NCBI RefSeq assembly: GCF_035084215.1
Contig: NC_090332.1
Span: 16,244,001 to 16,308,000, forward strand
Length of the DNA stretch: 64,000 nt
From: Heptranchias perlo
Lineage: Eukaryota
Direction of reading: 5' to 3'
Part shown: positions 414-64,000 of the stretch, in pieces
Layout of the letters: each line of letters opens with the position of its first letter
Numbering within the stretch: position 1 is the stretch's first letter
Position numbers and translations under genes: made by a program
Notes under the pieces: generated by a model
Database searches by the model: none
What the model saw: only the letters and a program-made list of their open reading frames with translations
What the model was told of the DNA's origin: nothing

Positions 414-718
414 ATAATATCATAGTAGGTACACACAGGAGGAGGCCATTCAACACACCGTGCCTGTGCTGGCCGTATCCAATTAGTCCCATTCCCCTGC
501 TCTTTCCCAATAGCCCTGCAAATTTTTTCCCTTCAAGTATTTATCCAATTCCGTTTTGAAAGTTACTATTGAATCTGCTTCCACCACGCTTTTGGGCAGT
601 GCATTCCAGATCATTACAACTTGCTGCGTAAAAAAAATGTTTCCTCAATTCGCCTCTGGCTCTTTTGCCGATCACCTTAAATCTATGTCCTCTGATTACC
701 GACCCGTCTGCCACTGGA
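414..718 (-). mobile_element. CR1 LINE 3' end (subfamily A)
   Basis: Minus frame gives 'RGHRFKVIG..RGELRKHFF' (CR1 ORF2 C-terminus); similar copies at 35.8, 44.4, 55.5, 57.4 and 61.4 kb. Confidence 0.9.
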
Positions 719-1599
719 CAGGCAAAAAAAAGATGAATTTTCAAACAACACTGATATGTGAAGGACAAACCATATCTTAATTCCACAAAAACAATGTAGA
801 TATTTCAGAATGAAGTAAAAATAAACATAAATCTGTATTGTATAAAATAAAGCTGGAACTGCGAAAAGTAGAATCAATTGGGATGGGATACGTGAGGGAG
901 TCTTTGTGTGGAAATCAAAAAAATAAAGAGGCGTGCTGTCAGAAATAAAATGTAATAATTTCAAACATTTAGGTGAAAAATTCAGAAAGCGTGTTTCAAG
1001 GCATTGAGCGACAATTGCACATCGTTTCAAATATCATATCCGACAGCCGACAAGCTTCCTACATTCATGGTGAGCACTGGTCCGCTTGGCAAAGCCCAAC
1101 ACAATTAACCAAAAACTAGTGACTTTCAGGATTTGGCTGGTCGAATGGACCAGTTAACATCGTTCATCAACTAGTGTATTATACTCCCACACACAAGAAA
1201 GATGCTTGTGCAGTCTTTTTAATAACCTCTTTCAAGAAACAACTGCAGGATGTTTCTAGCAGTTACAACAAGTTATTTTTTAGTTTCTGTCCTTATTGGT
1301 GGGGGGGGTGGGGGAACCATTTTTTATTATGGATCAGCAATCCTATCGGGTCCTGGCCCGGTTCTGTCAACCTTGGAGCCTTAAATTGAAGTTTCTGGCC
1401 TTGGTTCTAGTGCTCAATCACCTTCATTATCCCACACACAGTCTCTTCAAACAAGCCTTTAAGGACTTTTAAAGTCAGTTTTTATTGGCAATTTAAAAAT
1501 TGGCTATTCTGTTTTTTTCAGGTTTTATTTTCAGTGTAAAAAAATGAGAGAAAATCAGAGGAAAAACTTGGTCCTCAAAAAAAAAACTAGGTAAATTCG

Positions 1600-1778
1600 A
1601 CAGCAACTCCCAAACCAGAGACCTCCACCACCTAGAAAGAAAAGGACAGCAGGTGTATGGGAACACCATCACCTCCAAGTTCCACTCAAGTCACACACCA
1701 TCCTGGTTTGGACATATACCGCCATTCCTTAATTGTAGCTGGGTCAAAACCTGGAACTCCTTACTTAGCAGCACTGTT
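1600..1778 (+). mobile_element. 3' region of a CR1-group (Zenon-like?) LINE, left half of an interrupted copy
   Basis: Homologous to ~24408-24585 ('cagcacctcccaaacc...gggtcaaaatcctggaactccc'); resumes at 4268. Confidence 0.8.
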
Positions 1779-1781
1779 ACA

Positions 1782-1993
1782 TTGAGTCTACAGCACAGAA
1801 ACAGGCCATTCGGCCCAACTGGTCCATGCCGGCATTTATGCTCCACACGAGCCTCCTCCCTCCCTAATTCATCGACCTCTATCAGCATACCCTTCTATTC
1901 CTTTCTCCTTCGTGTGCTTATCTAGCGTTCCCTTAAATGCATCTATGCTATTTGCCTCAACTACTCTTTGTGGTAGCGCGTTCCACATTCTTA
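1782..1993 (-). mobile_element. CR1 LINE 3' end (subfamily B), left part of an interrupted copy
   Basis: Minus frame 'VRMWNALPQRVVEANSIDAFKGTLDKH'; matches the 3' end of the 42766-43655 copy. Confidence 0.9.
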
Positions 1994-3506
1994 CATCCCC
2001 AGGACCAAATGGTTTCCATCCCAGGGTTTTAAAGGAAGTAGGTGAGAACATTGTAGATGCCCTAATTATAATCTTCCAAAGTTCTCTCAATTCAGGAACC
2101 GTTCCTAGAAAATTGCATATGCCACTCCGCTATTTAAGAAAGGTGAGAGAGGGAAACCAGGGAATCACAGACCAGTTAGCCTAACATCTGTTGTCAGGAA
2201 ATTACGAGAGTTTATAATTAAGGACAGAGTGACTGAACACCTTGAAAATTTTCAGCTGATCAGAGAGAGCCAGCATGGATTTGTAAAGGGTAGGTCATGC
2301 CTGACGAACCTGATTGAATTTTTTGAAGCGGTGACTAAAGTAGTGGACAGGGGAATGTGTATGGATGTTGTTTATATGGTCTTCCAGAAGGCATTCGATA
2401 AAGTCCCTCATAAGAGACTGTTAGCTTAAGTTGAAGCTAATGGAATTGAGGGTAAATTATTGACCTGGTCAGGAAATTGGCTGAGCAGCAGGAGACAGAG
2501 AGTAGTGATAATGGACAGGTACTCAAATTGGCAGGATGTGACTAGTGGTGTCCCACAGGGATGTGTGTTGGGACCTCAACTTTTCACTGTATTTATTTAT
2601 GACTTAGATGACGGGATAGAGAGCTACATATTCAAGTTTGCCGATGACACAAAGTTAGGCAGCATTGTAAGCAGTGTAGATGGAAGCATAAAATTACAGA
2701 GAGATATTAATAGTGAATGGGCAAAACTATGGCAAATGGATTTCATTGCAGGTAAATGTGAGGTCATCCACTTTGGACCTAAAAAGGATAGATCAGAGTA
2801 CTTTCTAAATGGTGAAAAGCTCGAAACAGTGGAGGTCCAAAGAGGCTCAGGGGTCCATGTACATAGATCATTAAAATATCATGGACAGGTACAGAAAATA
2901 ATCAAAAAGACTAATGGAATGCTGGCCTTTATATCTAGGAATAGCCCTGGTTTGACCACACCTGGAATACTGTGTTCAGTTCTGGGCACCGCACCTTAGG
3001 AAGGATATATTGGCCTTGGAGGGAGTGCAGTGTAAATTTACTAGAATGATATCTGGACTCCAAGGGTTAAGTTACGAGGAGAGATTATACAAACTCGGGT
3101 TGTATTCCCTGGAATTTAGAAGATTAAGGGGCGATTTGATCGAAGTTTTCAAGATATTAAGGGGAACTGATAGAACTTTCTAAATAGAGAGAAACTATTT
3201 CCACTGGTTGGGGAGTCTAGGACTAGGGGACATAGCCTAAAAATTAGTGCCAGGACTTTCAGGAGTGAAGTCAGGAAACACTTCTACACGCAAAGGGTGG
3301 TAGAAGTTTGGAACTCTCTTCCGCAAACGGCAGTTGATGCTAGCTCAATTGTTAATTTTAAGTCTGAGATTGTTATATTTTTGTTAACCAAAGGGACATG
3401 GGGCTAAGCCGGGTGTATGGAGTTAGGTCACAGATCAGCCATGATCTCATTGAATGGCAGAACAGGCTCAAGGGGCTAAATGGCCTACTCCTGTTACTAT
3501 GTTCCT
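1994..3506 (+). mobile_element. 5'-truncated CR1 LINE with decayed reverse transcriptase
   Basis: [52 protein letters not shown] motifs broken by stops/frameshifts; 3' UTR ends 'ggcctactcctgttactatgttcctat'. Confidence 0.95.
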
Positions 3507-4266
3507 ATTACCACTCTTTTGGTAAAGAAGTTTCTCCTGAATTCCCAATTGGATTTATTAGTGACGATCTTATCTTGGTGACCTCTAGTTTTGGACTCCC
3601 CCATAAGTAGAAACATTTTCTCTACGTCTACCCTATCAAACCCTATCATTATCTTAAAGACCTCTATTAGGTCACCCCTCAGCCTACAATTTTCTAGAGA
3701 AAAGAGTCCCAGCCTGTTTGTCTTTCCTGATGAGTATATCCTTTCAGTTCTGGTATCATCCTAGTAAATCTTTTTTGCACCTTTCCCAGTGCCTCTATAT
3801 ACTTTTTATAATATGGAGACCAGAACTGTTCATAGTACTCCAAGTGTGGTTTAACCAAGGTTCCATACACATTTAACATAACTTCTCTGCTTTTCAATTC
3901 CATCCCTGTAGAAATGAACCCCAGTGCTTGGTTTGTTTTTTTATGGCCTTATTAACCTGTGACACTACATTTAGTGATTTGTATATCTGTCCCCCAGATC
4001 CTTCTGCTCCTCTGCCCCATTTAGACCCTTATTATCCAAGCAGTAAGTGGCCTCCTTATTCTTCCTACTGAAATGTAATACCTCACACTTATCTATATTG
4101 AAATTCATTTGCCAATTACATGCCCATTCTGCAAGTTTATTAATGTCTTCCTGTATTTTTTCGCAGTCTTCCTCAGTGTTAACTATACCCCCCAATTTGG
4201 TCGGGTCCGCAAATTTTGAAATTGTACTTCAGATCCCCAAGTCCAAATTGTTTATGTTAATAGTGA
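3507..4266 (-). mobile_element. CR1 LINE (subfamily B), right part of the interrupted copy
   Basis: Minus ORFs 'LVKPHLEY..QFWSPY' and 'WQMNFNIDKCEVLHF'; continues 1782-1993 colinearly. Confidence 0.92.
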
Positions 4267-4267
4267 A

Positions 4268-4410
4268 TGCGAGAATACCATCACCACATGGACTGCAGCG
4301 GTTCAAGAAGACGGCCCACCATCACCTTCTCAAGGGCAACTTGGGATAAGCAATAAACTCTGGCCTTGTTAGCAATGCCCACATCCCAAGAATGAATATT
4401 TTTTAAAAAA
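4268..4410 (+). mobile_element. LINE 3' tail, right half of the copy starting at 1600
   Basis: 'PSPHGLQRFKKTAHHHLLKGN' then 'gggataagcaataaactctggcc...cccacatcccaagaatgaat' and an A/T-rich tail. Confidence 0.85.
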
Positions 4411-4589
4411 ATTCAGAGAAAATCATTAAAAGAAAACAGTTTTTATTTTGAACACCACTAAAAGTCAAGGAAACGAGCAAGAGTGCAGTGAAGCTAAATG
4501 AAAACTCACATTTATTTACACCATTTACAGGTACCACTTTTATTGTGCTCACAATCAGACTCTCGCCCTCCACCCAGAAATAATAAAAA

Positions 4590-4822
4590 TAATAGCAAGG
4601 CCAGCATTTATTGTCCATCTGTAGGTGCCCTTGAGAAGGTGGTGGTGAGCCACTTTCTTGAACCACTGCAGTTCATGTGGTGAAGGTGCTCCCACAATGC
4701 TGTTAGGTAGGGAGTTCCAGGATTTTGACCCAGTGACGATGAAGGAACGGCGATATATGTCAAAGTCAGGATGGTGTGTGATTTGGAGGGGAACTTGGAG
4801 GTGATGGCATTCCCATTTCCAC
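4590..4822 (-). mobile_element. LINE 3' end, same family as 24262-24722
   Basis: Minus frame 'RRSFIVTGSKSWNSLPNSIVGAPSPH..FKKVAHHHLLKG'. Confidence 0.85.
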
Positions 4823-13800: not shown

Positions 13801-14740
13801 ATCTTTAAAAAAAAGACCAACTCCTAATCAAAACAAACTGTATTTAAATACGTTTTTAAAAAATAAAACAAATGAGAAAGAGTTATAAGGGCTGTAATCT
13901 TAGCTGAGTTGAGATAACAATTTTAACATGACCAAGCTTCTTGCTCTTTATGATGCGTTCTGTGCCCCCTCAGTGAGATCAATCTGGTAACTCACTGTTG
14001 GATCACAATTGTTTTCTATGTACTGTTTTTTTGCTGCAAATGAGCAAAAAATATTGATTTTTGATATTGTCTGGTGGCATTGAACTTCAGGGGATTATGA
14101 CTATTTACTGTGTTGCCCAAGGTTGTTAACAGGAGGCATTCTGCGCAAATACATGACTGCTAATTTAAAGATACTACCCGAAATGGCAACAGAATCTTGG
14201 AAATTCTATTCAAGAATTCTATAAGGTAATTGAGGCCATATATAGGAATGGCTTTCTGTGAGAGAAGACAATTTTTAAAGGAGAGACAAAAATATACCAA
14301 TTATTCATGTGTATATATGTGCAGATGAAAGGTTCATTACTTTCCCTGAGCTGTCACCAATTCACCTTCAAGTGAAGCTCTTTTAACCTTTTGCCCTTAA
14401 TTTAGACAATAGGTAAGAGAAGCATAGTCATCCAACTAGCGATTCTGATGAAAATATTGTTTTAGAGAGCAAAAATGTGTGTCGCAACAGAATCCAATTC
14501 TCTTCTGTCATGTTACTGCAAAGGGATTTAAAAAAAAATAAACTGAAGCATACAATTGGCATAATACTTTTACAAGCTTGTTAGTTTTGTCAGCTCGTCT
14601 CTGTATTTGGCAGTTTCCCTCCAAAACAATTTACACCCGTATTATCCTTCTCCGTCAGGGTGCCTGAATTGTCCAGCCGTGTAGTACTCCAGAACTGACA
14701 TATCACACATGACAGTCCCATAGGACTGCCCCTTCATGCA

Positions 14741-15022: not shown

Positions 15023-15426
15023 AAAGGACACTCCCGAATGTTATAATTTTATTGTTTTAGAACTGGATATCTAATTTTTTTACTACTTACAGTTTTCAAC
15101 AAAATACATTTAATATTTGATTTAAATGTGTACAATTCATTGAGCACCCCAGTATCGCAGGATTCTTATATTAGAGCGAGAGAGAAATTTCATCCCATCA
15201 GTTTGCGTTGGGTACAAACCGAGATCCCAGAGATGAAAAAGTATTATGCCAATTGTATGCTTCAGTTTATTTTTTTTTAAAATCCCTTTGCAGTAACATG
15301 ACAGAAGTGAATTGGATTCTGTTGCGACACACATTTTTGCTCTCCATGATGCCACAGAGCTAATGATATCCAGCAAAACTCTCAACTGTAAGGAGCCCGT
15401 GTGCCCAAGTATGTTCGAATAGTCCT

Positions 15427-22625: not shown

Positions 22626-22690
22626 ATAGGCAATAAATGCTGGCCTTGCCAGCGACGCCCACATCACATGAACGAATATTAAAAAAAAAT
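22626..22690 (+). mobile_element. Short LINE/SINE 3' tail insertion
   Basis: 'ggcaataaatgctggccttgccagcgacgcccacatcacatgaacgaat' followed by poly-A. Confidence 0.8.
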
Positions 22691-23095: not shown

Positions 23096-23295
23096 NNNNN
23101 NNNNNNNNNNNNNNNNNNNNNNNNNNNNNNNNNNNNNNNNNNNNNNNNNNNNNNNNNNNNNNNNNNNNNNNNNNNNNNNNNNNNNNNNNNNNNNNNNNNN
23201 NNNNNNNNNNNNNNNNNNNNNNNNNNNNNNNNNNNNNNNNNNNNNNNNNNNNNNNNNNNNNNNNNNNNNNNNNNNNNNNNNNNNNNNNNNNNNNN
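23096..23295. other. Assembly gap (200 N)
   Basis: Run of N. Confidence 1.
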
Positions 23296-23460: not shown

Positions 23461-23496
23461 TAAAAGCATTTATTATAATAGTTAATCTTTGTTTAC

Positions 23497-23798
23497 ATTT
23501 GTTCTTGGGATGTGAACCACATTGGAAAGGCATCTTTATTACCCAGCCCCAGTTGCCCTGAGGACTTTAAGAGTCAACCATGTAGTGTAGGACTGGAGTC
23601 ACATGTAGGCCGGAGCAGGTAGGAGACAGGTAAGAGCAGCAGGTTCCCTTCTCTGAAGGACATTATTGAATTTTTTTACACAGTAGCTTTCAAGGGCATT
23701 TTCTCTGCTACCAGCCCATAGACTTTATTGGTCAGATATGAATTTATAGATCTCTGGGTTGTTAGTCCAGTACCAAAACTACTAGGCCAGCCTAACCC
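23497..23798 (-). mobile_element. SINE composed of the 63411-type tRNA head/5' region fused to the LINE 3' tail
   Basis: Minus strand: head 'ggcctagtagttttggtactggactaacaacccagag', body 'taatgtccttcagagaagggaacctgc...tgtgactccag...tggttgactcttaa', then tail 'gggcaactggggctgggtaataaa...cacatcccaagaac'. Confidence 0.75.
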
Positions 23799-24261: not shown

Positions 24262-24722
24262 TGGAGTTCATCCAGGACAAAGCAGCCCGCTTGATTGGCA
24301 CTCCATCCACCACCCTAAACATTCACTCCCTTCACCACCGGCGCACTGTGGCTGCAGTGTATACCATCCCCAGGATGCACTGCAGCAACTCGCCAAGGAT
24401 TCTTCGACAGCACCTCCCAAACCCGCGACCTCTACCACCTAGAAGGACAAGAGCAGCAGGCATATGGGAACAACACTACCTGCACGTTCCCCTCCAAGTC
24501 ACACACCATCCCGACTTGGAAATATATCGCCGTTCCTTCATCGTCGCTGGGTCAAAATCCTGGAACTCCCTACCTAACAATACTGTGGGAGAACCGTCAC
24601 CACGTGGACTGCAACGATTCAAGAAGGCAGCTCACCACCACCTTCTCGAGGGCAATTAGGGATGGGCAATAAATGCTGGCCTCGCCAGCGATGCCCATGA
24701 ACGAATTTAAAAAAAAAAAAAA
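24262..24722 (+). mobile_element. Young 5'-truncated LINE 3' end (CR1 group, Zenon-like?)
   Basis: 132-aa frame 'IQDKAARLIG..HSLHHRRTVAA..RRSFIVAGSKSWNSLP', 3' tail and poly-A, many intact CpGs. Confidence 0.88.
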
Positions 24723-26253: not shown

Positions 26254-26313
26254 AGCAATAAATGCTGGCCTCGCCAGCGACGCCCACATCCCATGAACAA
26301 ATTTTTTTTAAAA
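26254..26313 (+). mobile_element. Short LINE/SINE 3' tail insertion
   Basis: 'gcaataaatgctggcctcgccagcgacgcccacatcccatgaac' followed by T/A run. Confidence 0.8.
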
Positions 26314-27159
26314 AGAGACAGGCTGTAGTTGTAGCTGACAAGGCCAAGGAAAGATCTTTGGGGGATTCCTGAGGTGATGGTGGGGAGTGGGAAGAGAAGG
26401 TGTTACTGGAGATGCGACTGGCTAGGTAAGAGTGGCACCAAGCTGGATAACAGATGAAAGGCGTTGGAAGAGGATGACATGGTAAATCCTGTCAAAGGCT
26501 GCAGAGAGGACAAGGAGGGATAATGCACCACGGGCACCGTTCTAGTCATAGAGAATGTCATTCATGACTTTTTGGTTATGGCTGTTTTGGTGCTGTTGTG
26601 GGGAGTGGGGGGAATAGTTGATTGGAGCGATTCAAGCTGCGATATGTGGGAGAACTGGGCAGTAATCTGAGAGTAAGCACATCGTAGCAACTACACCCCA
26701 AGCCTTCTCTTTTATTGCTTTGTTATTATTTAATGGGAAGATTGTAGTGGATCCGATAATAAAAGCAGTTAGTTATTACCCCACCAATTTGAGTGTCAGT
26801 ATTGACCCAGTTTAACTTCAGGCTATGAAACCAATCTCAGCACATCAATGAGGAACTTTTGCCCTTAACTACAATTACAGACAATTGTTTTGTCTGATTT
26901 TTGTATTTTACTTGGACAACGGGTCCGATCTTCAGGGTCATTTCTGCTTGTTCTAAGGTCCCTTTCCAGCTCTTCTGTTGCTACAGCGGTTTGCCTGCTG
27001 CAGCACTGTCAATATTTCCCTCCTCACGTTGCTGGGCCCCCTCTCGGCTTTGGAAATCCCGCCAGGGGCCGGCCATGCATCTCGAATCAGGCCCATCCCG
27101 GGGAAATGGGTTGGGGGTGGAGTGGATTCAGAGAGGTGGCTGAAAGTCCCACCCTGCTG

Positions 27160-35777: not shown

Positions 35778-36145
35778 CTCATAGAATCTTACAGGCACAG
35801 AAGGAGGCCATTCGACCCATTGTGGCCGTGACAGCTCTTTGAAAGAGCTATCCAATTAGTCCCGTAGCCCTACAATTTTCTCCTTCAAGTATTCAATTCC
35901 CTTTGGAAAGTTAGTATTGAATCTGCTTTCATCACCCCTTCAGGCAGTGCATTCCCAATCATCAGAACTCACGGCGAAAAGAAAATTCTCCTCATTTTGC
36001 CTCTGGCTCTTTTGCCAATTACCTTAAATCTGTGGCCTCTGGTTACCGACCCTTCTACCAGTGGAGCAGTTTCTCCCTATTTACTCCAGCAAAACCCTTC
36101 GTGATTTTGAACAGCTCTATCAAATCTCCCCTTGACCATCTCTGT
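35778..36145 (-). mobile_element. CR1 LINE 3' end (subfamily A)
   Basis: 'RGDLIELFKITKGF'; matches 414-718. Confidence 0.88.
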
Positions 36146-36699
36146 TTTTCTATGTAACTCTCCTTAACTTTTTTTCCCCAAATGTTATATTCTTGAGACT
36201 TTCTGCCCTCTTTAATACAGGGACACTGAGGTTTGGTGCAGAGAGAACAGGACACCAACATCTGGGCTTTTGTCTGATTTATCTTGAAGGATAAGGGAGA
36301 AATTATGGAAGAAATGAAATAAATGGGATAGGATCAATGATTGGACTGATTGTACATGGTCTATGGAAAGGGCAGGCTTGATGGGACAAGGATTCTTTTC
36401 TTGCTCTATGCACTATTGTATTCTGTTGCATTTTAGGTCTTATCTGCTTTATGTGGCTAAGATCAGGAACTGCCTGGAATTAGGCAGATGGAAGAAGAGA
36501 TTTGAACTTGTATCCAGTCACTCTGTACTGCTACATGTTAGTGTTTCAATGTTCTGTGTGCCTGAGCTGTCCTGAATGGGGAAGAAATAACTTAGTTTCA
36601 ATGGGACAAAAATCGGGCAGGTTCTACAACAGGTGGGCGATCCACTGTGCCAAGTTACCACCCAGGCAGCGAAGTTGAAAATTCCCCCCGCAACTCTGC

Positions 36700-43772: not shown

Positions 43773-43860
43773 TGACGAAGGGGATAATCTCCGAAAGCTT
43801 GTGATTTTAAAATAAAATTGTTGGACTATAACCTGGTGTTGTAAGATTCCTTACATTTGT
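43773..43860 (+). mobile_element. Single Penelope-type terminal fragment with hammerhead core
   Basis: Nearly identical to 53076-53160. Confidence 0.85.
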
Positions 43861-44330: not shown

Positions 44331-44407
44331 CCCGAGTTTTGCGTTGAACCTCCACGGCCTTTATATGTGTGTACTTGTCCTGTATGTCCAGCATTATTCT
44401 TTTAAAA

Positions 44408-44645
44408 GTATCATAGTATGGTACAGCACAGAAAGAGGCCATTTGGCCCACCATGCCTGTGCCAGCTCTTTGAAAGAGCTATCCAATTAGTCTCACTCCC
44501 CTGTTCGTTCCCCATAGCCCTGTAAAATTTTTCCTTTCAAGTATTTATCCAATTCCCTTTTGAAAGTTCTTATTGAATCTGTTTCCACCACCCTTTCAGG
44601 CAGTGTATTCCAGATCATCATAACTCACGGAGTAAGAAAAAAAAA
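44408..44645 (-). mobile_element. CR1 LINE 3' end (subfamily A)
   Basis: Near-identical to 414-640 and 61418-61660. Confidence 0.9.
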
Positions 44646-44649
44646 GTGT

Positions 44650-44860
44650 TCCATTTTGTCTTCTACTGAAATGTTGAGGAACATCTTTCTCCAATCCAAT
44701 GGTCCCAATTCATCCCTTGTCCCTTTGAAATTAAGTTTTTTAAAGCTATCAACCTGGTTCCTGTTTTTTGTTCTCATTGGGTCCCAGATCATGTTAAACT
44801 TGATCATTCTGTGGTCACCATGACTTCCATTTCTTGTACGTTATCTGGGTCATTTACAAA
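44650..44860 (-). mobile_element. CR1 fragment (end of APE and linker)
   Basis: Minus frame 'DHRMIKFNM...LNFKGTRDELGPLDW'. Confidence 0.55.
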
Positions 44861-52679: not shown

Positions 52680-52883
52680 CTGTCCCCTTCATTCTCAATT
52701 TCCTTTTCCCTCATCCCTTCATTGCCATTTATTGCCCTGTCTCCCTCACTGTACCTTTCCCTTCTCCATTGCCCCTTTCATTGCAACCCATTAATGCCCT
52801 TCCTTGCCCTTCATTGTTACCCATTCCCCCTTCATTGCCATCCATTTCCCCTTCTCCACTCCTTGATTGCCATTCATTATCTC
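52680..52883. repeat. Degenerate minisatellite ('cccttcattgcca'-like units), resuming at ~53195-53250
   Basis: Repeated ccc(t)ttcattg motif. Confidence 0.55.
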
Positions 52884-53194
52884 AAATGTAAGGAATCTTA
52901 CACCAGGTTATAGTCCAACAAATTTATTTTAAAATCACAAGCTTTCGGAGATTATCCCCTTAGTCAGATGAATGAGTGAAAAGGTTCTCAAATCGCATAT
53001 CTTATACTAGGCTGGGACAGCATCACACCAATTGGTGTAAGATATGCGATTTGAGAACCTTTTCACTCATTCATCTGACGAAGGGGATAATCTCCGAAAG
53101 CTTGTGATTTTAAAATAAATTTGTTGGACTATAACCTGGTGTAAGATTCCTTACATTTGTCCACCCCAATCCATCACCGGCATCTCCACATCAT
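52884..53194 (+). mobile_element. Palindromic Penelope-derived insertion with TSD
   Basis: 121-bp arms 52884-53004 and 53038-53158 (1 mismatch), 36-bp 3' extension, TSD TCATTATCTC (52874-52883 and 53195-53204). Confidence 0.9.
53071..53107 (+). ncRNA. Minimal type I hammerhead ribozyme motif
   Basis: ucau-CUGACGA-A-[GGGGA uaa UCUCC]-GAAA-GC-UU-guga. Confidence 0.75.
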
Positions 53195-55511
53195 TCATTA
53201 TCTCGACCACTATCCATTCCCCCTTTCATTATGATCTATTCCCCCCATCTCATTCCTACATGAGTTTGGCTGCTAATGGACTGGACCGGGACCCCTCTCT
53301 CCTCGATGCTGCTAATGACAGTGATTCAGGCCACTGTGTAATGTAAACGGGGATTTCTGTTCTTGCAAGAGTTCCCTCCTACAGTATACAGCGGCTGGAC
53401 TCCCTTCTATTTGTGGTAGTGAGGAGATAGGACCCTGGGCCAATTAATTTGTAGCTGGACTTGGGTTGGAGCAAGTTGGCGGGTGCTTTGAGAGGTGAAT
53501 GATTGAGGAGAAAAGACCCATTTCTCACTGATTTTTGTCAGCAAATGCTGACAGCTTGACTCGACCCCCTAAAAAGGCTACTGTCAGCATGAAAGGCTGA
53601 AGGTTGGCATGTATGTAAACATTTACATTTTAAACACTGGGAGTAGACTGGTATAAATTGCAGTGCTATTATAGCATGTAGTTTCTTTTTTCTATGTTTA
53701 GTGAAGATGTAGTCATGAGTATAAAGCTGTGATCCTCACTTTACACTCGGAGCTACTTTTCGAACTAAAAGTAGTGAACAGAGGAAACCTGTCCCCGTAT
53801 CTCATGGACTTTGACTACAAGAGAGTGGAAATGTTTTAGCCCTTGGATATATTCCAAAGCCAAAGCAGTGATCCTTTTTGTTAATGTAGCTTGCACTGCG
53901 CCAATCAGTTACAAACAACGTAACAGAGTCGAGCCCTGTAGCAGTTCAACTAAATCCATGGAGAGACAGATGGATATGAAAAACAGAAACGTAGAAACCA
54001 AAGGCCAATGGTTCTTGTAGCTGTAACTGAATGATACCAAAGACTGGTTGTTGCTTTCACGTTGTGGATTGTTTGGGGTATTGTATAGATGAAGTCATCT
54101 ACGTCACATTGTTGTAGAAGCAAATAACACCAGAGTACAATGGTTCAGTGTTATCTGTCCTGAGCAGCCTGAGCCTGGAGGGTCAATCTTCTGAGTTACA
54201 GGGTTGAAGCAATCTTCAGTGCAATGCAGAAGTGCCTAAGAACATAGTTTTTATTAAGCCCCAACATCTTGCACAACAGAATAGAAAGTTGGAGGGTGGG
54301 AGGGAAATCCAAAGGCAAATGGTTCAGGCCTTTTTTGAGTACTCCAGAGTGTGATTGGCATCATTTTGGAGAAAAAAATATACATCGCCTCTCAGCCAGA
54401 AATAGTCTGTAAACGAGGAGAAGAGCAGACAATTTTTTTTGGTGATGGGGTTCACAAGATGACATGGTTGGATCTTCTGCATCTGCATTCAGCCCACATT
54501 GATTCATCCATTCAGAAAGTATTTTACAGTTCCCTCATTGCAACATGCAATTGTTGTATTAAATGATTCTAGTGCTCTATTCAGGATTCCATTCCATATA
54601 TTGATCACTGGAAGAACTGCCTGATGTCCATCTTAAATTTGCCTTTAACTAGCTTGCACCTGCGTCCTTTTATCTCACTCTTGCAATTTTGTTAGATTAT
54701 GGTGAAGAAAACGATTAAGTTTCTATAAGTATTCCCCTGTTAAGTTCTGGCCAAAAGAAAAGAGGGGTGTGATGGGGATGGGGACATTCACTTGCTGTGC
54801 AAGGTGAAAAAAAATGTGTCAAGTAATTTCTTGACACAAAGTTTAGACTTTGAACTTCATGGCACAGAAAATCTGCGGCTCTTCCGGCATACTGCCACCT
54901 ATAGCGTTGGCAAGGATCCTCCAGAACAGCCAGAAATTAGGCCGGACGATCATGGCCTGGGGCCCAAAAGAACAAAGCCAAAATTAATTTGGGAAATTTT
55001 CAAGCAGCCCCCTTGCTAAGGTAACCATGGCAGCATCTCGCTCTTGGTTCTGTGGGGGGGATTGGCGACCCCACCCCCCCACAATTGACGCAATTTCCTG
55101 GCAAGACTTTGCGGCCTCCTCAGTGGGCGCGTGCCCCTTATAGTGCGGAAACCAGCCAATGGGACAGAAGTCAGGGAACTTCCTTCTCTGGGGTCAACGA
55201 TGGAGGCTTCTGGCAGGTGCGTCATGGTAATTATGCCAAGATGCTTCCAATCGTGGAGTTTTTGAGGCTAATATCTGTGACAATCAGTGAATTAAAAATG
55301 TTTCCTTTCTTGCAGCTACTGAACTCACTGTCAGCTTTGAGAAGTGAAGTGACCTTTTCAGTTCCTAAATAATATTTCCCCCCCCCCCTTTTCTCTGCTC
55401 CCCAGATAGATAATTGGGCTCATTAACTAGCACCTCCTACCTGAATGGACAGACAGAACATAGCAGTAAAGGTGCACAAATGTTCCAGGAGCATGAAAGA
55501 ATTGCAATTTG

Positions 55512-55815
55512 CATCATAGAATGATACAGCACAGAAGGAGGCTATTCGGCCCATCATGCCTGTGCTGCCCTCTGAAAGAGCTACCAATTCGTCCCACTCC
55601 CCTGCTCTTTCCCCATAGCCCTGCAGATTTTTCCTTTTTAAGTATATATCCAATTCTCTTTTGAAAGTTACTACTGAATCTGCTTCCACCACCCTATCGG
55701 GCAATGTATTCTAGATCATTACAACTCACTGAGTAAAACAAATTTCTCCTCGTCTCCTCCTTTTGACAATTATCTTAAATCTGAGTCCTCTGGTTACTGA
55801 CCCTCCTGCCAATGG
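55512..55815 (-). mobile_element. CR1 LINE 3' end (subfamily A)
   Basis: 'PDRVVEADSVVTFKRELDIYLKRKNLQGYGERAGEWD'. Confidence 0.9.
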
Positions 55816-56199
55816 AGTATGTACACACTGCATTTCTTTTGTTTGTATCATAGTATTTTATAAAATGTATTTAGATGACTCATAGTTTCAGTGCTTATAA
55901 TAATAATAACAATTACAGAATTGGGGTCCCAACCTCTCAATGTAGGGAAGCCACTAATTTACCTCTACTGTTACAAAGCAAATCTTCAGAACAATTAAGA
56001 TCAATAGGGATACACAATATGTGGAATACTAGATAATCAACAAATGTATCAGACACACGAGGAATGCAGGGGTCATAAGCAATAGAAATAGTTTGCAAGG
56101 TTTTAGAAATAATTCCTCATGAATCTACTGGAATATTTTATGGCGGTAATAAAATTACAGCCAAAGGCTACCCAGTAGATATAATTCACTTTGTTTTTC

Positions 56200-57364: not shown

Positions 57365-58075
57365 TGAATCATAGAAAGGCTACAGCCAGGAAGGAGGCCG
57401 ATCGGCCCATCGAGTCCATGCCTGTTCTATGCAAGAGCAATCCAGCTAGTCCCACTCCCCTGTCCTTTCCCCGTACCCCTGCAATTTTTTTCCTTTCAAA
57501 TACTTATCCAGCTCCCTTTTGAAGGCCATGATTGAATCTGCCTCTACCACCCCCTCGGGCAGTGCATTCCAGATCCTAACCACTCGCTGTGTTTAAAAAA
57601 AAGTTTTTCCTCCTGTCACCTTTTGGTTCTTTTGCCAGTTGCCTTAAATCTATGTCCTCTGGTCCTTAACCCTTCCACCAATGGGAACAGTTTCTCTCTT
57701 TCTACTCTGTCTAGACCCTTCATGGTTTTGAATACCTCTATCAAATCTCCTCTCAACCATCTCTGTTCCAAGGAGAACAAGCCCAGCTTCTCCAGTCTAT
57801 CCACGTAACTAAAGTCCCTCATCCCTGGAATCATTCTAGTGAATCTCTTCTGCACCCTTTCTAAGGCCTTCACATCTTTCCTAAAGTGCGGTGCCCAGAA
57901 CTGGACACAATACTCCAGATGTGGCCGAACTAGTGTTTTATAAAGGTCATCATGACTTCCATACTTTTGTACTCCATGCCTCTATTTATGAAGCCCAGGA
58001 TCCCGTATGCGTTTTTAACTGCTATCTCAACCTGCCCTGCCACCTTCAGTGGACCTCAAGTCTCCAATGCACTGG
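57365..58075 (-). mobile_element. CR1 LINE 3' fragment (subfamily A-like)
   Basis: '[46 protein letters not shown]'. Confidence 0.93.
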
Positions 58076-61113: not shown

Positions 61114-61340
61114 ATGATGTGGAGATGCCGGTGATGGACTGGGGTTGACAATTGTAAACAATTTTACAACACCAAGTTATAGTCCAGCAATTTTATTTTA
61201 AATTCACAAGCTTTCGGAGGCTTCCCCCTTCGTCAGGTTTTTCACATCGTTCACCTGACGAAGGGGGAAGCCTCCGAAAGCTTGTGAATTTAAAATAAAA
61301 TTGCTGGACTATAACTTGGTGTTGTAAAATTGTTTACAAT
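61114..61340 (-). mobile_element. Palindromic Penelope-derived insertion with TSD
   Basis: Perfect 89-bp arms 61150-61238 and 61253-61341, 14-nt loop, 36-bp extension homologous to 53159-53194, TSD TATTTAAACC (61104-61113 and 61341-61350). Confidence 0.9.
61250..61288 (+). ncRNA. Minimal type I hammerhead ribozyme motif
   Basis: uucac-CUGACGA-A-[GGGGG aag CCUCC]-GAAA-GC-UU-gugaa; fully paired 5-bp stem I. Confidence 0.8.
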
Positions 61341-61417
61341 TATTTAAACCAGCTCAATCAGTTCTTTCAAAGAATGTGGCACAACTAAGGAAACCAGGAA
61401 AGTAATGTTTTAAACTT

Positions 61418-63045
61418 CATCATAGTACCATAGTGGGTACAGTGCAGGAGGAGGCCATTCGACCGACATGTCTGTGCCGGCTCTTGGAAAGAGCTATCCA
61501 ATTAGTCCCATTCCCCTGCTCTTTCCCTATAGCCTTGTAACTTTTTTCCCTTCTAGTATTTATCCAATTCCCTTTTGAAAGTTACTATTGAATCGGCTTC
61601 CACCACCCTTTCAGGCAGTGCATTCCAGATCATTACAACTCACTGTTTAAAAAAAAATGTTTCCTCATTTCGCCTCTGGCTCTTTTGCCAATCACCTTTA
61701 AATCTGTGTCCTCTGTTTGCCAATCCTTCTGCCACTGGAAACAGTTTCTCCTTATTTACTCTGTCAAAACTCTTCATAATTTTGAACACCTCTATCAAAT
61801 CTCCCCTTAACCTTCTCTGTTCTAAGGAGAACAATCCCAGCTTCTGTAGTCTCTCCACATAACTGAAGTCGCTCATCTTTGGTACCATTCTGGTAAATCT
61901 CTTCTGCACCCTCTCTAAGGCCTTAACATCCTTCCTAAAGTGTGGTGCCCAGAATTGAACACAATACTCCAGTTGAGGCTTAACCAGTGTTTTATAAAGG
62001 TTTAGCATAACTTCCTTGCTTTTGTACTCTATGCCTCTGTTAATAAAGCCCAGGATCCCATATGCTTTTTTTAATAGCCTTCTTAACTTGTCCTGCCACC
62101 TTCAAAGATTTGTGTACGTGCACCCCCAGGTGTCTCTGTTCTTAATCATAGAATCATAGAATCATAGAAGTTACAACATGGAAACAGGCCCTTCGGCCCA
62201 ACATGTCCATGTCACCCAGTTTATACCACTAAGCTAGTCCCAATTGCCTGCACTTGGCCCATATCCCTCTATACCCATCTTACCCATGTAACTGTTCTTG
62301 CACCCCCTTTAAAATTGTACCATTTAGTTTATATTGCTTCTCCTCATTCTTCCTCCCAAAATGCATCACTTCACATTTCTTTGCATTAAATTTCATCTGC
62401 CATGTGTCTGCCTGTTTCACCCGTCTCTCTATGTCCTCCTAAAGCCTGTTACTATCCTACATGTTGTTTACTACATTTCAGAGTTTTGTGTCATCTGCAA
62501 ACTTTGAAATTATACCCTCTATATCCAAGTCCAGGTCATTAATATATATCAAAAAGAGCAGTGGTCCTAATACTGACCCCTGGGGAACACCTCTGTGTAC
62601 TTCCCTCCAGTCTGAAAAACAACCGTTCACCACTACTCTCTGCTTTCTGTCCCCGAGCCAATTTTATATCCACGCTGCCACTGTCCCTTTAATCCCATAG
62701 GCTTTAATTTTGCTAACAAGTCTATTATGTGGTACTTTATCAAAAGCCTTTTGGAAGTCCATATACACGTCAACTGCACTACCCTCTTCAACCCTCTCTG
62801 TTACTTCATCAAAGAACTCAATCAAGTTAGTCAAACACTATTTTCCTTTAACACATCCGTGCCAACTTTCATTTATTAGCCCATTCTATCCCAAGTGCCA
62901 TTTAATTTTGTCCCAGATCATTGTCTCTAAAAGTTTCCCCACCACCGACATTAGGCTGACTGACCTGTAATTGCTGGGTTTATCCCTCTCCCCTTTTTTG
63001 AACAGGGTTGTAACATTTGCAGTCCTCCGGCACCATCCCCATATG
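61418..63045 (-). mobile_element. 5'-truncated CR1 LINE (subfamily A) with RT
   Basis: Minus frames: [51 protein letters not shown]. Confidence 0.95.
62144..62291 (-). mobile_element. Young short CR1 3'-end insertion with octamer tail
   Basis: (AATCATAG)3 tail; TSD CTGTTCTT at 62136-62143 and 62292-62299. Confidence 0.85.
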
Positions 63046-63410
63046 CAGAACCAACCTAGACCAAAATCCGGTATTAGGGAGCTGAATTTTGTATGTAGGC
63101 CCTTTCACAAATCAGATACCTCTCCCAAGTGAGGCAGTGAAACTACCTGTCACCAGTGGACAATTAAATATCTTCTTCATTGTATACAAAGAAAGCTAAA
63201 GGCTTTATTCATTGACAATCTGTCCAAATATGTTCGAACTCTCTTCGTTTTAAGATATTAGATAGAGATCCAGGTGGCGCAATTGGTTAGACTTTACAAG
63301 GAGGACTTTTTGATGGAGTTGCATTGGACTCCAGCAAACATGGGTGGAAAATTCTTTGACCTGCTGCCTCTAGCTCCCCACTATTTCTGCAATCTTCTGC
63401 GGGAAGTGAT

Positions 63411-64000
63411 GGGGGAATACGGTAGCATAGTGGTTATGCGACTGGGCTAGTAATCCAGAGGCCTGGACTAAAATCCAGAGTCATGAGTTCAAATCCTGCC
63501 ACGGCAGCTGACGAATTTAATTTCAATTAATTAATTAAATTCAATTAATTAAATAAAAATCTGGAATTAAAATACTAGTATCAGTAATGATGGCCATGAA
63601 ACTACCGGATTGTCGTAAAAACCCATCTGGTTCACTAATGTCCTTTAGGGAAGGAAGCCTGCCGCCCTTACCCGGTCTGGCCGAAATGTGACTCCAGACC
63701 CACAGCAATGTGGTTGATTCTTAATTGCCCTCTGAAATGGCCTAGCAAGCCACTCAGTTGTAAAATCTCGCTACGAAAAGTCATAATAAGAATAAAACCG
63801 GACGGACCACTAGGCACCGGACACGACAACGGCAAAACACCAAGCCCAGTCGACCCTGCAAGGTCCTCCTTACTAACATCTGGGGACTTGTGCCAAAATT
63901 GGGAGAGCTGTCCCACAGACTAGTCAAGCAACAGCCTGACATAGCCATACTCACAGAATCATATCTTTCAGCCAACGTCCCCGACTCTTCCATCACCATC
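63411..64000 (+). mobile_element. 5' end of a LINE with tRNA-like Pol III head and APE frame (runs off the window)
   Basis: A box TAGCATAGTGG (63423-63433), B box GTTCAAATCC (63487-63496); open frame 63764-64000 '..KVLLTNIWGLVPKLGELSHRLVKQQPDIAILTESYL..' is an APE N-terminus. Confidence 0.85.

Follow-up and report, generated by a model that had tools for sequence, protein, structure and literature searches.

A tRNA-derived head and an ATG-less endonuclease frame at the 5′ end of an elasmobranch Zenon LINE

In the textbook division of retroelements, SINEs are non-coding and transcribed by Pol III, whereas LINEs are coding and transcribed by Pol II. We analysed a 64,000-nt stretch of the Heptranchias perlo genome (NC_090332.1, positions 16,244,001 to 16,308,000; hereafter the window), the right end of which (63411–64000) raises a question about this division. 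There, a tRNA-derived head leads on the plus strand into an endonuclease reading frame that has no ATG. A first-pass annotation made from the letters alone had suggested that this is an autonomous, SINE-headed LINE that uses Pol III and initiates translation in a non-canonical way. We asked whether the parts make up one element, to which family it belongs, and how such an element would be transcribed and translated.

The tRNA-derived head spans 63411–63500 as judged from an Rfam match, the loose ends of aligned contigs and the starts of published consensuses, and the element itself starts at about 63411–63415. It contains a Pol III A box (TAGCATAGTGG, 63423–63433) and a Pol III B box (GTTCAAATCC, 63487–63496), both recognised by pattern match and from published consensuses; a tRNA-like 5′ region with both boxes, one mark of a tRNA-derived Pol III unit, is found at 63411–63500. 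The pair of boxes matched once on the two strands of the window, where at most 0.01 matches would be expected by chance in a Markov simulation whose pattern was composed with the site already known. An Rfam tRNA match at 63423–63478 (22.8 bits, E 0.034) falls below the gathering score of 29, and ARAGORN called no tRNA in the head, as is expected for a derived head. An anticodon-like arm and a second, similar arm occupy 63442–63480 (copies at 63442–63460 and 63463–63480), and the loop of the first, CTAGTAA, would give AGT (Thr) if read as an anticodon. The head opens a leader of 353 nt (63411–63763) that holds nine ATGs, an AT-rich 18-nt tandem duplication (63517–63552) and a body (63575–63740) that is common to this element and to a short SINE described below. 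Folding of the head (z −1.83) and of the leader at 63600–63900 (z −0.18) revealed no special structure. The boxes, the duplicated arm and a leader of about 350 nt had all been proposed in the first-pass annotation, and each was recovered at the positions given here.

The leader ends in a frame of 79 codons with no ATG (63764–64000, cut by the end of the window), where a basic N-terminal segment is followed by the apparent start of an APE endonuclease, with motif residues Asn at 63875 and Glu at 63956. An ATG-GCC-TAG mini-ORF (63737–63745) and a second stop, TAA at 63761, together take up 63737–63763, and a 71-codon ORF that does begin with ATG overlaps the APE frame in the +1 frame on the same strand (63708–63923). 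The ATG-less frame and the mini-ORF, which in this copy is in frame with APE, had been reported before; the TAA, the nine leader ATGs and the +1 ORF are additions to that description. A direct Pfam search with the 79-aa piece gave no APE match and a PDB search with the endonuclease frame gave 0 matches. The piece aligns at 33% over 78 aa (E 2e-12) with P0018, a protein in which Exo_endo_phos scores 4.5e-10. It shares 76% identity with P0008, where Exo_endo_phos has an E of 0.0014, below the cut-off. Through these two alignments the frame can be assigned to an APE endonuclease by a route that is indirect but sound, and the identity suggested earlier from motifs holds on the same indirect terms. 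All seven of the close relatives that bear accessions are whale-shark gene models or shark-named, which places the host among the elasmobranchs. Longer relatives were sought in three protein searches, but no full-length protein came up, the 1, 1 and 6 matches being host models with LINE pieces. A metagenome scan found two loci, both unrelated bacterial genes, and scans of viral contigs and prokaryote genomes gave 0 each. Shark gene models P0020–P0026 and P0001 (for example PSMG2, JMJD8, KCNH2 and PBX4 isoforms) carry in-frame pieces of the LINE ORF, which are either exonisation or annotation artefacts.

A simple explanation of this layout would be a SINE that inserted by chance beside a 5′-truncated LINE, making the junction unique to this locus. 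Both parts are indeed very abundant, and a stand-alone SINE and LINE tail fragments are present in the window. We compared the window with four runs (X1, X5, X8 and X10), all of them contigs aligned at 80% likeness or more, X5 being RNA by guess only. In X1, the unique flank had a depth of 9.02, as against a summed depth of 0.18–2.1 million in every bin of 63406–64000. Depth was 1.74 million before the frame, 0.86–1.17 million over its first 84 nt and 1.3–1.6 million over APE, and thus stays far above background at the junction, although summed depth does not equal copy number. Contigs with a 5′ loose end at 63418 numbered 229 in X1, 10 in X5 and 12 in X8, and agreement among their flanks was only 0.38–0.55, which is to say that the flanks are unrelated. 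The junction was bridged with at least 31 bases on each side by X1 records 3, 6 and 7 and X8 records 30 and 31, found among 32 listed of about 37,750 pieces; these five contigs come from two organisms and carry 15–33 differences each. X10, from a third organism and with 57 contigs, contained no bridge with 31 bases on each flank of the junction. Among protein models, P0006 (whale shark) and P0012 continue from the body into APE, and the junction recurs in all seven of the published consensuses considered below. Because bridging contigs occur in two organisms and copies start at the head, we regard a chance SINE beside a LINE as ruled out, with a vanishingly small probability. Head, body and APE frame almost certainly form one unit, which is multi-copy and is represented in five published species, and the multi-copy head/ORF junction predicted beforehand is supported by both contigs and consensuses.

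The coding frame of this unit is under protein-level constraint that starts within the basic segment. Among the in-frame X1 variants listed at 10% of depth or more, all five are synonymous, including those at 63775 (a CpG site) and 63830, which lie upstream of the APE motifs; 13 of the 32 X1 variant places are outside those listed and may be non-synonymous. Over all runs, 7 of the 11 listed variants are synonymous as compared with an expected 25–33%, and the remaining four are minor, come from the other runs and are non-synonymous. Four common X1 variants fall in the overlap with the +1 ORF, and all four alter the +1 protein and are silent in the APE frame; the +1 ORF is probably not under protein selection. 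Since the head enters a coding frame with synonymous-biased variation, 63411–64000 is not a short, non-coding SINE. The basic segment also varies in length, with a 12-nt in-frame deletion at 63805–63815 relative to published consensuses (compared by eye) and a 3-nt deletion at 63836–63838 in 4–49% of depth across runs. The second stop codon differs among subfamilies (TAA, TAC or TAT). At 63763, A>C accounts for 16% of depth in X1, 62% in X5 and 10% in X8, and 316 loose ends run on as TAT.

The family to which this unit belongs has been described. Zenon LINEs with no ORF1 and a poly-A tail are reported from five elasmobranch species in the accessible part of PMC13343379 (Genome Biol Evol 2026), and its Supplementary Table 2 gives seven elasmobranch consensuses of 2.9–3.3 kb (2,886–3,314 characters): SquAca_Zenon-1, -2 and -3 (three dogfish families), CarCar_Zenon-1 (white shark), RhiTyp_Zenon-1 (whale shark), ScyCan_Zenon-1 (catshark) and HypSab_Zenon-1 (stingray). 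The comparison was made by eye and covered the first 400 nt of every row. All seven open with the tRNA-derived head and continue with the body and then the basic frame; the hagfish and coelacanth Zenon rows (0/3) do not open with the head. A 15-nt junction motif matched five rows of the supplement, all Zenon, and two further rows have the same layout. The A box (TRGCNNAGTGG) was seen in 7/7 elasmobranch consensuses, 6–11 nt from the consensus 5′ end, and the B box (GTTCRANNC) in 6/7, being absent from HypSab; the spacer between the boxes varies. Of the dogfish families, SquAca_Zenon-1 and -3 have the duplicated arm and SquAca_Zenon-2 has it in part. Six of the seven also have the ATG-GCC-TAG mini-ORF, and six have an out-of-frame ATG at the position of 63792, just 5′ of the basic segment. 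The match in 5′ sequence, the absence of ORF1 and the APE at the start of the ORF (through P0018 and P0008) all agree with Zenon, and we take 63411–64000 to be the 5′-terminal part of one single-ORF elasmobranch Zenon LINE of about 3.3 kb.

The window copy is like elasmobranch Zenon in its head, body, mini-ORF motif, basic N-terminal frame and lack of ORF1, and the SquAca forms additionally share with it the duplicated arm and the TAA. It differs from published Zenon in the 18-nt duplication, in an in-frame deletion of 12 nt and in having ATA where the +1 ATG would stand. The subfamily of this copy, with its two stops, ATA at 63792 and 12-nt deletion, may not be autonomous and may have been moved in trans. 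Intact Zenon ORFs are rare in the accessible counts of PMC13343379 (0/2313, 1/1419, 3/612, 1/294, 0/396 and 0/59, with one cell garbled). As anticipated by the first-pass annotation, there is no conventional upstream 5′ UTR, ORF1 or in-frame ATG in the seven elasmobranch consensuses. Because these consensuses share the head, both the family and the absence of ORF1 from it are already published (PMC13343379), and to that extent the structure is not new. The part of the novelty claim that stands concerns the head: the words tRNA, promoter and start codon do not occur in the accessible text of that paper or of its preprint, nor does tRNA occur in the text of the supplement. In the CC-licensed literature we found no account of shark Zenon with a tRNA head; Repbase, Dfam, Ogiwara 1999/2002, the supplements of the preprint and the Zenodo files may contain one. 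The family is thus known, and its tRNA-derived head seems to have gone unremarked in the text covered here.

The window also contains a short, non-coding SINE on the minus strand (23488–23797), an older element that consists of head, body and Zenon tail without the second arm. Aligned bases of the SINE and the LINE agree at 51/64 in the head, 121/151 in the body and 55/70 in the tail, and all scores exceed those of 300 shuffles; the body alignment (63575–63740 with 23714–23549 on the minus strand) scored 137 as against a shuffle maximum of 69.5. Judged by these alignments, the SINE corresponds to the LINE minus its ORF, and it was likely mobilised by the Zenon LINE, with which it shares head and tail. 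A 5′-truncated 3′ end at 24262–24722 on the plus strand has an ORF stop, AATAAA and poly-A. We infer that it is the tail of the same LINE family, the link between head and tail being known from the SINE at 23488–23797 alone. Among CR1-group elements, a poly-A tail is found in Zenon only, according to the accessible text of PMC13343379. The SINE may have arisen from the LINE by internal deletion; the alternative is that, in an elasmobranch ancestor, the LINE acquired the 5′ part of the SINE by capture. That hagfish and coelacanth Zenons are headless weakly suggests capture of the head in the elasmobranch line; the suggestion is weak because vertebrate Zenons are not monophyletic (PMC13343379, accessible text).

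Six 5′-truncated 3′ ends of the same poly-A LINE family are found in the 64 kb, at 1596–1777(+), 4277–4415(+), 4595–4816(−), 22626–22689(+), 26255–26314(+) and 24262–24722(+), and they are 82–97% alike to the copy at 24.3–24.7 kb. A 200-base N gap (23096–23295) lies immediately to the left of the SINE.

From this anatomy we infer, on the strength of sequence comparison, a mechanism that combines Pol III transcription with a non-AUG start. The tRNA-derived head probably acts as an internal Pol III promoter, and we lean slightly towards a polymerase that starts at the head and reads through to the poly-A tail. The rival reading is that full-length RNA is made by Pol II, from an internal promoter in the body or by host read-through, the head being a captured relic or serving the SINE only. 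Such an origin would fit the AATAAA that precedes the poly-A tail, as expected of Pol II processing, and in insects Zenon derivatives lack a Pol III head and presumably rely on the promoter in the 5′ UTR of the LINE (PMC6740152, accessible text). It is at odds with the persistence of the A box (7/7) and B box (6/7) in shark and ray LINE consensuses while the spacer changed, and with copies that begin at the tRNA 5′ end. Capped RNA is easier to translate, which would also speak for Pol II, but the nine upstream ATGs would impede cap-dependent scanning. On balance we consider transcription by Pol II unlikely.

Pol III terminators bear on the same choice. No TTTT run occurs in the sense strand of 63411–64000 plus 24262–24708 (1,037 nt), and none was seen by eye in the first 400 nt of each of the seven consensuses. 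Because 1.36 runs would be expected by chance in the 1,037 nt, their absence is not significant (P 0.225). About 2.2 kb of ORF lies outside this count, and a T4-free stretch that covers only 1,037 nt of about 3.3 kb leaves room for Pol II. In X5, depth rose to 46,000 on the body as against 545–3,800 on the APE frame, and six of the eight listed pieces end at 63736–63760. This pattern suggests that the signal comes from SINE-type copies and not from transcripts of the LINE, and the depth is unsuited to ranking.

Because the APE motifs lie 5′ of any in-frame ATG, a working endonuclease requires a non-standard start. Synthesis of the endonuclease-RT protein would begin at a non-AUG codon immediately 3′ of the ATG-GCC-TAG mini-ORF, and the case for translation of an uncapped RNA by non-AUG initiation or reinitiation at about 63746–63800 seems to us evenly balanced. 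The protein would then copy the RNA from its tail by target-primed reverse transcription, which is established LINE biology.

Two other starts were weighed. Initiation at the mini-ORF ATG (63737) with readthrough of TAG would fuse M-A-X-Q-A-T-Q-L-Y to APE. UAG-CAA may act as a leaky stop context, the mini-ORF is kept in six of the seven consensuses, and in CarCar, ScyCan and HypSab it is in the APE frame with one stop and the same 27-nt spacer as in the window. By contrast, RhiTyp, SquAca-1 and SquAca-2 have it out of frame, the shift in RhiTyp is seen again in whale-shark model P0002, and the second stop TAA is common to the window and all three SquAca families. Readthrough is therefore improbable in our view. 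The earlier description of a same-frame mini-ORF is right as to conservation of the motif, but the same-frame relation is not constant, holding in only 3/6. The other possibility is a start at an ATG of the +1 frame (63708, or 63792 in most relatives) with a −1 frameshift into APE. The +1 frame is open over 63708–63923 in the window, and the 63792 ATG recurs in 6/7 consensuses. Against this, the window has ATA at 63792, A>G there is below 10% in X1 and X8 (counted by kind, and divergent copies may be clipped), the variants at 63775 and 63830 alter the +1 frame and leave the APE residues as they are, and no canonical slippery heptamer was found. We think a frameshift quite improbable. Both readthrough and frameshift nevertheless keep some weight because A-rich indels can be misplaced in consensuses built mainly from dead copies. 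A non-AUG start after the mini-ORF is the sole arrangement compatible with every lineage. A Zenon 5′ end, a Pol III head and a non-AUG start after the mini-ORF may thus together be the best explanation, one that we would accept or doubt with equal readiness.

As a comparison, separate parts of this arrangement are known from other elements. RTE-1_DAn and the elements akin to it, like shark Zenon, are LINEs noted to contain tRNA-like sequence; they differ in belonging to the RTE clade, and the accessible text has this as a passing remark without position, promoter role or mechanism (PMC5786205). Persaeus/Zenon of Lepidoptera resembles shark Zenon in having a single ORF and a short derivative made from the 5′ and 3′ ends, but according to the accessible account Persaeus has neither homology to tRNA nor a Pol III promoter (PMC6740152). 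Translation of an ORF that has no standard start is a likeness to R2, the LINE ORF of which can lack an initiating Met (PMC13188248, accessible text), and to L1 and SART1, where ORF2 is translated by termination–reinitiation (PMC5972666, accessible text). Unlike shark Zenon, L1 and SART1 have a real ORF1, and R2, L1 and SART1 are all without a tRNA head. R2 depends on Pol I co-transcription and a ribozyme.

Several other identities were considered. HE1 (V-SINE)/HER1 of sharks and rays is similar to the present case in that a tRNA-headed SINE shares its tail with a shark LINE (PMC3747384, accessible text), and an HE1/V-SINE mobilised on HER1 was dropped once the Zenon consensuses matched. No V-domain core was seen by eye in the Zenon body on comparison with bivalve V-SINEs, the HE1/HER1 sequences being outside this comparison. 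A search by eye for a Meta or V domain after the head found no likeness to bivalve SINEs, and four words from the body had 0 matches there; a Meta domain (MetaSINE) identity for the body was dropped. SINE2-1_CM was also set aside, being a CORE SINE with an L2 tail that is absent from sharks (PMC5499810, accessible text), as was an rRNA-headed AviRTE LINE as a precedent, the rRNA head belonging to a SINE (PMC4844689, accessible text).

We tentatively propose an autonomous LINE that would be transcribed by Pol III from a tRNA promoter, captured and then retained in both sharks and rays, would make an APE-RT of about 950 aa from an uncapped RNA with no in-frame AUG, and would give rise to its own SINE by internal deletion. 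A LINE whose usual 5′ end bears a conserved tRNA promoter would blur the split between SINEs and LINEs, and would offer a one-step route to a SINE, namely deletion of the ORF. It would also show, in a natural setting, whether an uncapped Pol III RNA of 3 kb yields enough protein to maintain near-full-length copies in the thousands. If the head is instead a relic in an element transcribed by Pol II, this would still be capture of a promoter module by a LINE, of modest significance.

Other repeats are present in the window. An 88-base, MITE-like module occurs as inverted pairs at 52883–53194 and 61114–61341 and singly at 43773–43860, the copies being 82–95% alike. An inverted repeat of 111 bases with 97% identity is formed by 14465–14574 and 15234–15344, about 660 bases apart. 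A second abundant repeat family, presumably CR1-like LINE fragments, is found at 413–718, 35779–36146, 44407–44661, 55510–55817, 57365–58048, 61421–62104 and 62485–63021.
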